Below, piece after piece: positions 3,262-27,808 of a stretch of 64,000 nt of DNA. Positions within the stretch are counted from its first letter, which is position 1. Each line of letters begins with the position of its first letter. The stretch comes from Escherichia coli (GTDB lineage Bacteria; Pseudomonadota; Gammaproteobacteria; Enterobacterales; Enterobacteriaceae). Made by a program: the position numbers and the translations under genes. The stretch lies in NCBI RefSeq assembly GCF_003334355.1, contig NZ_QOWP01000002.1, one strand, 5' to 3'. Below the pieces are notes generated by a model that was given only the letters and a program-made list of their open reading frames with translations, was not told where the DNA came from and ran no database searches.

Positions 3262-4655
3262 TAATCACCCCATAGTGAAGAAAAGTTACTGCTGGCTGCT
3301 GGCTGTGATACCTGTGTAGGTTGAGATTGCTGCCGCTGAGATTTACCAACATTAACGTTATATTGTTGGTTGTAATTGTCGGTATATTGCTGAATGTCGC
3401 GCATTGATTGTTGCAGTGCTTCAGGGCTTGAGAAATCAACCTGTGGCATACCTTGAAAATACATCTTTGCTTCTGCAACGGTGTTGATACCGGATGCCCC
3501 CATGTCTCTGGCTGCTGCAATGCCCTGATTCTGCATCTTTCCTTGGATTCGCTGTGCAGCGTTGTATAGTTTCCTCTGATCACCACCAGATGCACGGCTA
3601 CGAATATCTGCACCAAGAGCAGGAGAACCTGAAGAGCCTGTAATGCCAGTCATGAAGCCAAGATCGTCAATTGATGCACCAGAAATTGCATCAAGATCTT
3701 TCTTCATTGCGTAATTCTGCGCGCTTGCTGCCGATGTAGCCGGAGCGGCAATAGAGCCAGCAGGGACGCGAACCATATTCCCCTCGTTGTCGATACCTTC
3801 GTAGAACGCATTAGCCCCAGCGCCGTGAAGCTTCCCGCCTACCGTTACAGTTCTGCCATCTGATAACTGAACTGTACGCTCATCATTCCCAGCGATTCCT
3901 CTTATTGACGCTCGCTTCATTGCCAAATCCTGACCTCGTCGCGCAGTAGAAGCAGATAAGTCCTGACCGCGCATCGTGATGTTCTGGCCTCGTGCTGTTA
4001 GTGCTTCTCCTGCCTGATTGCTGCGGATTGTCTCTGCCAGTCTTCCTCGGTCAATCTCACGACCAGCCATCTTGTCCTGAACATTGAAGTAATCAATTGG
4101 ACCAAGAGCAGCCATTCCAAGGTGATCAACAAACTCACCAAATCCTGAAGGGTTCTGCTGATACATCTGAGCAACGTTATTAGGGTCAACACCGACGCGA
4201 GTCAGTTCCTTGGCGTTGTTTTGCAGCCATGATTGCATTGCTTCTGGAGACGAGGCCGCAAGGCGTGCGCCAGCCGCTAAGGTGCCGATAGAATTGCGCT
4301 GGTCTTCGTCTGCCCACTTCATACCAGACTGAATCTTCTCTAATTGACCAGGATATTTGGCCATCAGATCTCGAACCTGCTGTCGATCACCTGATTGAAT
4401 AGCAGAAGCATAATCCTTTCTGAATGCCGCCTCTTGCTTCTGCTGATCATATTGCTGCAATCCTTGCATTGTGCTTGTTATTCCCTGCAGAGCCTGCAGA
4501 CCGATATTGTTGCGACCAAGCCTGGCATCCTCATTATTCTGACGAATGTAAGCCAGTGTCTCATTTACATCACTCGCCTTTGGCGCATTCTCATTTTGCG
4601 CACCAATTCCAGCCAGAAAACCACCGGAGTTGATGCTCTGTTGCCAAGTTGCCAC
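3261..4655 (-). CDS. ejection protein, P22 gp20-like
   Basis: 464 aa; synteny and size match P22 gp20 (471 aa). Confidence 0.7.
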
Positions 4656-25416: not shown

Positions 25417-25596
25417 GTTTCACTCCTGCTTTGGCTAGTCTGTAAACACCAACAAGGCGCTCTGCGAACGCCCTGTTATTTGCTGCGGCTACCACTAATC
25501 CCTCAGGTGAATCAGGGTGTCGAATCTCTTCTTTTTCCTGGTATTTCTTACGACGTTTTGTCATAATTACTCCTGTGGATTGATCCAGTAATTCCC

Positions 25597-25893
25597 TCAG
25601 AATTGCATATCAATTTGCTTAAAATCCTCGGTGGCAGCCGGGGATTTTTTCTTTGTGATTTCATCAAGCGCATACTTAAAAGCCCTGCTAATCGGACTGA
25701 TGTCTGATGCCATTCCGAAAGCACACAAGACCGAAGCAATAAATCTCCAGTCCGTTCTGCTTATCTTCGATTCATGACAGCCAATCATCTTTGCCAGACC
25801 GCGCTGGGTAAGCGTTGACAGGTTGATGAGTAAATCAGTTTCAGCGCGATCAATTTCTCGCTGTGTTGGCTTGCTGTAACTTGTTTGTGTCAT
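25597..25893 (-). CDS. cII: CII-like transcriptional activator
   Basis: 98 aa; C-terminus KKKSPAATEDFKQIDMQF parallels lambda CII KKRPAATERSEQIQMEF. Confidence 0.75.
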   Translation of the reverse strand: MTQTSYSKPTQREIDRAETDLLINLSTLTQRGLAKMIGCHESKISRTDWRFIASVLCAFGMASDISPISRAFKYALDEITKKKSPAATEDFKQIDMQF

Positions 25894-26014
25894 TTCTTAC
25901 TATCTCCATAGGTAAATAATTTGGGTTTTTATCGTGCACCATTGACAGTCATCCTTGACCACGCCGGGCACCCGACCGTATACCGGGCCGTTCGGTACTA
26001 AAAGTACATTTTTA

Positions 26015-26245
26015 TTACATAACAAACTGCTGTTTACCGATACGGCGAATCTGTGCTGCTGAGTACTTGCCGCCTGATGCCTTGGCGATCTTATCCGCAT
26101 ATTCGGTTTCACCAGTGAACTCGGTACGCGGCAGAGAACCACGCTCAAGCCACTTATAGATGGCTTTTGGCGTAAGTCCACAAACATCAGCCACAACAGA
26201 AACTCGAACGGATTTGATAACTTCTCCAAACGTAACTTCGTTCAT
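26015..26245 (-). CDS. cro: Cro-like HTH repressor
   Basis: 76 aa HTH protein divergent from cI across operator repeats. Confidence 0.6.
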   Translation of the reverse strand: MNEVTFGEVIKSVRVSVVADVCGLTPKAIYKWLERGSLPRTEFTGETEYADKIAKASGGKYSAAQIRRIGKQQFVM

Positions 26246-26261
26246 GCTTCTCTCCTGTGGT

Positions 26262-26331
26262 GAACTTATGGTTCATATTATGACGGAACTGATAGTACAG
26301 TCAATACCTAATATAGTTGAACTTATGGTTC
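26262..26331. promoter_or_regulatory. cI/cro operator region: two copies of palindrome TGAACTTATGGTTCA
   Basis: Identical 15-mers at 26262-26276 and 26317-26331 between divergent cro and cI; second overlaps cI start codon. Confidence 0.55.
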
Positions 26332-27032
26332 AACAGAAAGAGCGTGAAACTTTCTCGCAGAGGCTTGCGCTGGCCTGTGATAAAGCGGGATTACCTTTGC
26401 ATGGTAGGCAGGCTGATTTAGCTGTCAGGCTTAAGGTCACACCAAAAGCCATTAGTAAATGGTTCAACGGGGAGTCAATACCAAGAAAAGACAAGATGGA
26501 ATCTCTGGCTTCGGTGCTGGGAACTACTGCTGCATATCTGCATGGCTATGCTGATTATGACGGTATCACGGTAAATCATCTATCAAGATCAAATGATTCT
26601 TATCGTGTTGATGTATTGGATGTTCAGGCGAGCGCCGGGCCAGGAACCATGGTTTCCAATGAATTTATAGAAAAGATAAGAGCAATTGAATATACGCCCG
26701 AGCAGGCAAGAATTTTATTTAATGGAAGGCCACAGGAAAGCGTAAAAGTCATCACGGTTCGCGGTGACAGCATGGAGGGAACCATCAATCCGGGAGATGA
26801 GATCTTTGTTGATGTATCCATAACCTATTTTGATGGCGATGGCATTTATGTGTTTGTATACGGGAAAACAATGCACGTTAAGCGCCTGCAAATGCAAAAG
26901 AACAGGCTTGCCGTCATCTCTGACAATGCCGCTTATGATCGATGGTACATAGAAGAAGGTGAAGAAGAGCAACTTCACATTCTAGCCAAAGTCCTCATTA
27001 GGCAGTCAATCGATTACAAGCGATTCGGATAA
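26325..27032 (+). CDS. cI: CI prophage repressor (HTH + S24 LexA-like autopeptidase)
   Basis: N-terminal HTH, C-terminal S24 fold (GDSMEGTINPGDEIFVD …KRL). Confidence 0.85.
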   Translation: MVQQKERETFSQRLALACDKAGLPLHGRQADLAVRLKVTPKAISKWFNGESIPRKDKMESLASVLGTTAAYLHGYADYDGITVNHLSRSNDSYRVDVLDVQASAGPGTMVSNEFIEKIRAIEYTPEQARILFNGRPQESVKVITVRGDSMEGTINPGDEIFVDVSITYFDGDGIYVFVYGKTMHVKRLQMQKNRLAVISDNAAYDRWYIEEGEEEQLHILAKVLIRQSIDYKRFG

Positions 27033-27274
27033 AAATAAATTTCCTTAAAGTTCACTAACTTATGATGTAGTGAGCTTTTTATACCCATAAAATGTACTAT
27101 TGGTACTTTACATTAATGAACTTTAAGTACATCATAAGCCCATAGACGAACGGCGCGTCTTTAAACCATGCGTCGGGAGCGCGGCGGGTTCAGGATGAAC
27201 GGCAATGCTGCTCACTACAAAAGAACATTTCCATAACCGGAGGGTTATTGAAGTGTTTTTGTTAGGAGGTTTAA

Positions 27275-27808
27275 GTGGATCTTACTCAAGTGTCTGTAAG
27301 GGAGATTCTTCATTACAATCCTGTGAGTGGTGACTTTTATTGGAAGCCGAGAGCAAAGCATTTGTTTGCGGATAACAGAGCTGCCTTGACGTGGAACAAG
27401 AAGTATCCAGGTAAAAAGGCTGGCTCACCTGACAACAAGGGTTATCTGAGAATAAATATTGGAGGTAAAAAATTTAAGTCTCACAGACTTGCATGGCTTT
27501 ACGTGCATGGCTACTGGCCTGATGTGATTGATCACATAAACGGCGTTAAGGATGACAACAGAATCTCCAATTTAAGAAGCGTTTCTTTCAAAGAGAATAT
27601 GAAAAACATGCCTTTAAAATCATCTTCATCAACTGGAGTTACAGGTGTTGAAGCAAGAAAAGAGCATGGGTTTTATGTTGCATCGATAACTGTGGATGGA
27701 AAACGAAAATACCTAGGCTCATTCAAACTTTTAGATGATGCCAAACAAGCAAGGAAAGAAGCCAATGCACTATATGGCTTTCATGAAAATCATGGACGGA
27801 GCCAGTAA
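27275..27808 (+). CDS. HNH endonuclease with AP2 DNA-binding domain
   Basis: HRLAWLYVHGYWPDVIDHINGVKDDNRISNLR (HNH_3) followed by AP2-like TGVTGV…GFYVASITVDGKRKYLGSF. Confidence 0.8.
   Translation: MDLTQVSVREILHYNPVSGDFYWKPRAKHLFADNRAALTWNKKYPGKKAGSPDNKGYLRINIGGKKFKSHRLAWLYVHGYWPDVIDHINGVKDDNRISNLRSVSFKENMKNMPLKSSSSTGVTGVEARKEHGFYVASITVDGKRKYLGSFKLLDDAKQARKEANALYGFHENHGRSQ

Follow-up and report, generated by a model that had tools for sequence, protein, structure and literature searches.

Organisation of the cro-cI region

The window analysed here, a 64,000-nucleotide stretch of an Escherichia coli contig, carries two divergent genes, cro (26015–26245, minus strand, 76 aa) and cI (26325–27032, plus strand, 235 aa), both taken from the ORF list and compared with GenBank record X16093, whose cro CDS matches the former. 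RefSeq labels cI a LexA family regulator and cro a hypothetical protein. An exact-match search of the window finds the 15-mer TGAACTTATGGTTCA exactly twice, both times on the plus strand, at 26261–26275 and 26318–26332. A preliminary description of this DNA had reported two identical 15-bp palindromes, starting at 26262 and 26317, between the divergent genes, with the second overlapping the cI start codon. The two copies are indeed exact, their placement between cro and cI is borne out by the ORF list, and the ATG (26325–26327) forms positions 8–10 of the second copy; the starts were each one base off. The inverted 5-bp arms, TGAAC and GTTCA, are also present, but the centre, TTATG, is asymmetric and only 10 of the 15 positions are self-complementary, so that the sequence is not a perfect palindrome. 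The copies are the sole exact 15-mer pair 15–100 bp apart in the window, where the chance expectation for such a pair is about 0.005 (roughly 5.5e6 position pairs × 4^-15).

Following the labels in the record of phage HK75, we refer to the copy next to cro as OR1 and to the copy over the cI start, which is centred on the A of the ATG (26325), as OR3. The best match of our promoter scan (10/12) is PR (26277–26304, minus strand; −35 TTGACT at 26299–26304, 16-bp spacer, −10 CATAAT at 26277–26282), which X16093 annotates as pR. OR1 lies 1 bp downstream of its −10 hexamer and covers the PR start. Within the PR spacer lies a third, degenerate site, OR2 (GGAACTGATAGTACA, 26285–26299), which is annotated in X16093 and HK75 and differs from OR1 by four mismatches; its centre is 24 bp from that of OR1 and 33 bp from that of OR3. 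On the plus strand, the scan predicts a promoter PRM (26289–26317, score 9/12) with −35 CTGATA at 26289–26294, a 17-bp spacer and −10 TATAGT at 26312–26317. Divergent lytic and maintenance promoters, the latter predicted, are thus overlapped by a tripartite operator.

Further sites flank the two genes. A "far right" CI operator, OFR (GGTACTAAAAGTACA, 25994–26008), is separated from the cro stop codon by 6 bp and abuts putR; the OFR of HK75 occupies the homologous position. Beyond cI, the preliminary description had seen a similar half-site pattern at about 27100–27125, possibly OL. The pattern is real, although that location was only approximate: it comprises OL2 (TGTACTATTGGTACT, 27093–27107) and OL1 (TGAACTTTAAGTACA, 27117–27131), both annotated as oL in X16093 and as oL2 and oL1 in HK75, with a centre-to-centre distance of 24 bp. 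A candidate OL3, discussed below, lies beyond these two sites. OL2 abuts the −35 hexamer of PL (27107–27135, plus strand; −35 TTTACA, 17-bp spacer, −10 CATCAT), a promoter recovered by the promoter scan and annotated in X16093, HK75 and O276, and OL1 lies in the PL spacer and overlaps the −10 hexamer.

Correspondence with the HK022 immunity region

A megablast search of 25950–27300 against phage records matched positions 25950–27217 to the HK022 immunity region with 99.6% identity, both in X16093, a record titled as the HK022 "nun gene and immunity region" (window coordinate = locus coordinate + 25831), and in the HK022 genome (AF069308). The same region is 99.5% identical to O276 and 94.9% identical to HK75. 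X16093 annotates three sites as "oR pot. repressor binding site" and two as "oL", together with pR, pL, cro and cI, all at matching positions. The HK75 record labels oR1 to oR3, oL1 to oL3, OFR, putR and putL, and the O276 annotation agrees on pR, pL and the put RNAs.

A four-way alignment shows the operators, both promoters, cro, putL and putR to be base-identical to HK022, and the window departs from HK022 by only four substitutions, all inside cI. All columns across OR are invariant relative to X16093, so that OR1, OR2 and OR3 are the HK022 sites at the HK022 spacing (24 and 33 bp). The remainder of the HK022 operator set is likewise in place, with identical OL1 and OL2 sites over PL and an identical OFR downstream of cro, and it is accompanied by the cognate CI DNA-binding domain and the cognate Cro.

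We therefore consider it highly probable (about 95%), judging from sequence identity and annotation, that the two copies are OR1 and OR3 of the HK022 immunity region, and that the OFR-putR-cro-OR-cI-OL-putL cassette of that region is intact in a mosaic lambdoid prophage. The feature is thereby one already known: it is the classical HK022 operator pair. The HK022 operators were reportedly sequenced by Oberto in 1989 and are said to have been footprinted by Carlson and Little in 1993. The operator details given here rest on secondary citations and GenBank annotation, and CI binding, cooperativity and looping are taken from the HK022 literature.

The reading of the copies as immunity operators, put forward in the preliminary description, agrees with the annotation of the 99.6%-identical HK022 region and with the cited literature. 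That description had recognised OR1 and OR3 and overlooked OR2, OFR and OL3; on balance, the evidence supports regarding its interpretation as right but incomplete rather than wrong.

Operator motif

The half-sites can be summarised as TGWAC-N5-GTWCA. Allowing at most one mismatch, this motif has 15 matches in the window against 5.4 expected, a number that none of 100 shuffled sequences reached, and seven of the 15 cluster within about 1.1 kb (25994–27131). OL1 matches the motif without mismatch, while OR2 and OFR each have one. One further one-mismatch site, TGTATTGGATGTTCA, lies inside cI at 26612–26626. We rejected it as an operator, since every lineage without an HK022-type cI has lost it; the match is probably due to chance.

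Conservation across CI lineages

The cI gene of Salmonella phage S9-5 has 75% nucleotide identity (about 80% at the protein level) to that of the window and was used for a comparative footprint. Within the seven sites, 69 of the 70 half-site positions are conserved in S9-5, as opposed to 203 of 269 other non-coding positions (Fisher p = 1e-6). The changes that do occur fall into the 5-bp centres of OR1 (TTATG to TTGTA), OL1 and OFR, apart from a single base of the weak OL3 half-site; OR2 and OL2 are conserved at all 15 positions.

The preliminary description had also proposed that the same operators be searched for in other prophages. Scanning IMG/VR with the exact pattern OR2-N18-OR3 matched 21 contigs (L006–L026), which fall into four CI lineages: the HK022 type, the S9-5 type, a type with 76% identity (L013, L020, L025) and a class C with 54% (L007, L012, L019, L026). 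As OR2 and OR3 were imposed by the search pattern, only OR1, OL, OFR and the spacings count as independent evidence in these contigs; the unchanged OR2 and OR3 in HK75, O276 and S9-5 are independent of it. Each site, where it occurs, holds a fixed position with respect to OR2 (OFR −291, OR1 −24, OR3 +33, OL2 +808 to +810, OL1 +832 to +834), and both the position and the half-sites of OFR are conserved in four lineages. Differences between lineages are confined to the central 5 bp or to an A/T swap at the degenerate third half-site position. Class C encodes a different, 85-residue Cro and has other genes after cI; it retains OR2, OR3 and the OR geometry, and we found no OL or OFR within range near its cI and cro. 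The recognition-helix region of CI, TPKA(I/V)SKWFNGES, is conserved across all lineages.

Operator geometry and half-sites are thus common to the window, HK75, O276, S9-5 and the IMG/VR contigs L007–L026, whereas the related immunity regions differ in the centre of OR1, in CI (down to 54%) and, for class C, in Cro and the absence of OL directly after cI. Together, these comparisons define the recognition rule as a clean footprint in the sequence, namely TGWAC arms around a free 5-bp centre.

The footprint also bears on an alternative in which the second copy is conserved merely through the cI codons Met-Val-Gln that it contains, with the pair being a fortuitous or recombination-derived duplication that has no regulatory role. 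Positions 8–15 of the OR3 copy are indeed coding, but its non-coding half, TGAACTT, is conserved equally, and the chance expectation given above leaves little room for a fortuitous pair. Moreover, seven sites share half-sites with conserved positions while the cI coding sequence has diverged to 54–80%, and the sites coincide with the promoters PR, PRM and PL. PMC8053113 cites published direct demonstrations of CI binding in HK022. We regard a duplication without regulatory role as extremely improbable, and the operator reading as much the better account of the pair.

The preliminary description had further held that the copies set the immunity specificity of the prophage. Taken strictly, this would make OR a pair of just two equivalent operators which alone determine specificity, and the two copies are indeed the only exact matches, with arms perfect in both. 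Yet OR2 lies between them in the PR spacer, is annotated in both HK022 and HK75 and is retained base for base in S9-5, and OFR and OL1–OL3 also belong to the system. Nor is the equivalence of the copies general, for OR1 and OR3 are identical in sequence solely in the HK022 lineage: elsewhere the centre of OR1 reads TTGTA or TTATA, and class C has TGAACTTAAAGTACA with the right arm GTACA. A two-operator system is therefore very unlikely. The copies stand as operators, and specificity rests on the whole set of CI, Cro and operators.

The CI and Cro proteins

In Pfam searches, the CI protein matches HTH_3 (E = 5e-9) and Peptidase_S24 (E = 3e-19), and its translation carries the Ala104-Gly105 site and the Ser149/Lys186 pair, which together mark it as a standard LexA-like lambdoid repressor. 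Its residues 1–77 are identical to those of HK022 CI. The two proteins differ only by D78Y, Y92S, T125P and C168Y (window positions 26556, 26599, 26697 and 26827), which are situated in the linker and the C-terminal domain, outside the HTH. The same allele occurs in three IMG/VR contigs (L010, L015, L024) and hence circulates in nature.

Cro is identical to HK022 Cro over 76 of 76 residues and obtained weak, sub-threshold HTH matches alone in Pfam. An HK022-type cro annotated as "hypothetical protein" by RefSeq/PGAP is also found in E. coli S1-CAM-01-C (L027, locus 4026–4256).

Since cro adjoins the sites and has a weak HTH signature, and since operator sharing is expected by analogy with lambda, one could suppose that Cro, or another HTH protein, is the main occupant of the sites in place of CI. 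The HK022 literature assigns binding at OR, OL and OFR to CI, however, and the OL and OFR sites make sense for prophage repression. Sharing of the sites by Cro is, besides, compatible with their being CI operators and not opposed to it. We give a mainly Cro-bound set of sites hardly any credence and continue to treat them as CI operators.

OL3 and the hairpin downstream of cI

The region 27040–27085 combines the candidate OL3 sites with a terminator-like hairpin distal to cI. RNA folding places the hairpin at 27047–27078 (z = −3.9), 3' of cI and followed by a T-run; it is probably the cI terminator. One candidate, TTTCCTTAAAGTTCA (27040–27054), is 53 bp from the centre of OL2 and fits the "53 bp between OL2 and OL3" given for HK022 in PMC8053113. 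The other, TGAGCTTTTTATACC (27071–27085), corresponds to the position annotated in HK75, 22 bp from OL2. Each of them has one good half-site, and these half-sites, GTTCA and TGAGC, are the two arms of the hairpin, the latter reading TGAAC in other lineages. Because the hairpin arms are operator-like half-sites, the position of OL3 is ambiguous; we favour 27040–27054 over 27071–27085 as the putative OL3.

A proposed model of the genetic switch

On the model we propose, dimers of the LexA-like CI would recognise 15-bp sites composed of two TGWAC half-sites around a freely variable 5-bp centre, with the N-terminal HTH binding DNA and the C-terminal S24 domain serving autocleavage and oligomerisation. 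Occlusion of PR in a lysogen would be due to CI at OR1 and OR2, two sites 24 bp apart that it occupies with very strong pairwise cooperativity, and occlusion of PL to CI at OL1 and OL2. At high CI concentrations, occupancy of OR3 may shut PRM and thereby bring about negative autoregulation. Repression would be reinforced by OFR, OL3 and looping between OL and OR, and in lytic growth Cro presumably uses the sites of CI. With no sequence difference between OR1 and OR3, their order of filling would have to be set by cooperativity with OR2 and not by intrinsic affinity.

Several components of this model have been described for HK022. PMC8053113 describes cooperative binding of HK022 CI to neighbouring operators within OR and within OL, and a contribution to immunity from an operator situated about 300 bp downstream of OR. 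CI also loops OL to OR in vivo, and between OL2 and OL3 it induces DNase I patterns resembling those of a loop. Both the physical occupancy of the sites by CI and the immunity of the lysogen are reported for HK022 itself (Carlson & Little 1993, as cited in PMC8053113 and PMC7498355). The cooperativity factor is put at about 2000 (−4.7 kcal/mol), compared with 60–130 in lambda, in PMC7498355, which refers to Carlson & Little 1993.

Consensus hexamers are the only basis for placing the start of PRM and, with it, for the regulatory sign assigned to OR2 and OR3. The predicted −10, TATAGT, is conserved in S9-5 though neighbouring bases differ, and the supplement of PMC8053113 bears a "PM-10" label at this place. 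Counting about 7 nt onward from the predicted −10 leads to the first base of the cI ATG, and a Shine-Dalgarno sequence is lacking. Together, these features suggest that the PRM message is probably leaderless, its predicted start coinciding with that base or adjoining it.

In its outline, the switch resembles that of lambda, with divergent PR and PRM, a tripartite OR, an OL beyond cI, and a repressor composed of HTH and S24 domains, which is cleaved at Ala-Gly and has a Ser/Lys dyad. The two switches also share OL–OR looping, cooperative binding to pairs of sites at a distance of 24 bp, and a cI message that is likely leaderless. The differences lie in the dimensions and in accessory elements. 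The operators comprise 15 bp with TGWAC arms (17 bp in lambda), the distance from OL to OR is about 0.8 kb (2.3 kb in lambda), OFR is an additional site, and antitermination relies on put RNA in place of N/nut. Unlike in lambda, OR1 equals OR3, so that discrimination between them cannot be intrinsic.

A further difference is the OR2–OR3 spacing of 33 bp, compared with 23 bp in lambda, which puts the centre of OR2 at about −33 from the predicted PRM start and OR3 at +1. In the lambda-type geometry, OR2 is near −42 of PRM and abuts the −35 hexamer, whereas here the predicted −35 sits within OR2. This arrangement is a misfit with the lambda model of activation from −42.

put sites and prophage context

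The cassette includes putR (25933–25994, minus strand) and putL (27151–27213, plus strand), both base-identical to HK022. Their presence implies that the prophage should use antitermination by cis-acting RNA rather than N/nut. An Rfam scan of 25500–27600 returned no real family, its matches being chance or hairpin artefacts; the put RNAs are absent from Rfam. When putL and putR were folded singly by MFE, their z-scores were close to 0, so that such folding neither supports nor tests them.

Homology to HK022 ends at about 27215, just past putL, and nun is missing. The sequence continues with a strong hairpin and U-run (27221–27265, z = −4.4), a probable terminator that would not stop put-modified polymerase, and then with a 177-aa ORF for an HNH endonuclease (27275–27808). 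The junction between putL and the HNH gene is also seen in Salmonella phage UPF_BP1 and in E. coli S1-CAM-01-C.

The region 14000–38000 is a mosaic with likeness to CUS-3, HK620, HK97, Kapi1 and HK022, of which no single record covers more than 40%. The prophage accordingly differs from HK022 in the four CI substitutions, in having an HNH endonuclease gene instead of nun after putL, and in its remainder, which resembles CUS-3, HK620, HK97 and P22-like phages. One may speculate further that the prophage carries a naturally circulating HK022 immunity cassette which was uncoupled from nun and transferred into a P22/HK620-like genome, and whose CI allele might alter cooperativity or RecA-dependent induction relative to HK022; separately, OR2 at about −33 would imply a non-lambda control of PRM. 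This extension strikes us as unlikely.

The practical value of the assignment is one of annotation, without new biology: the prophage can be placed in the HK022 immunity group. Immunity to HK022, HK75 and O276 is the prediction that follows from this membership. The HK022-type module is rare among complete E. coli genomes, the immunity region being present in 10 of 5,426, three of them with 100% identity.
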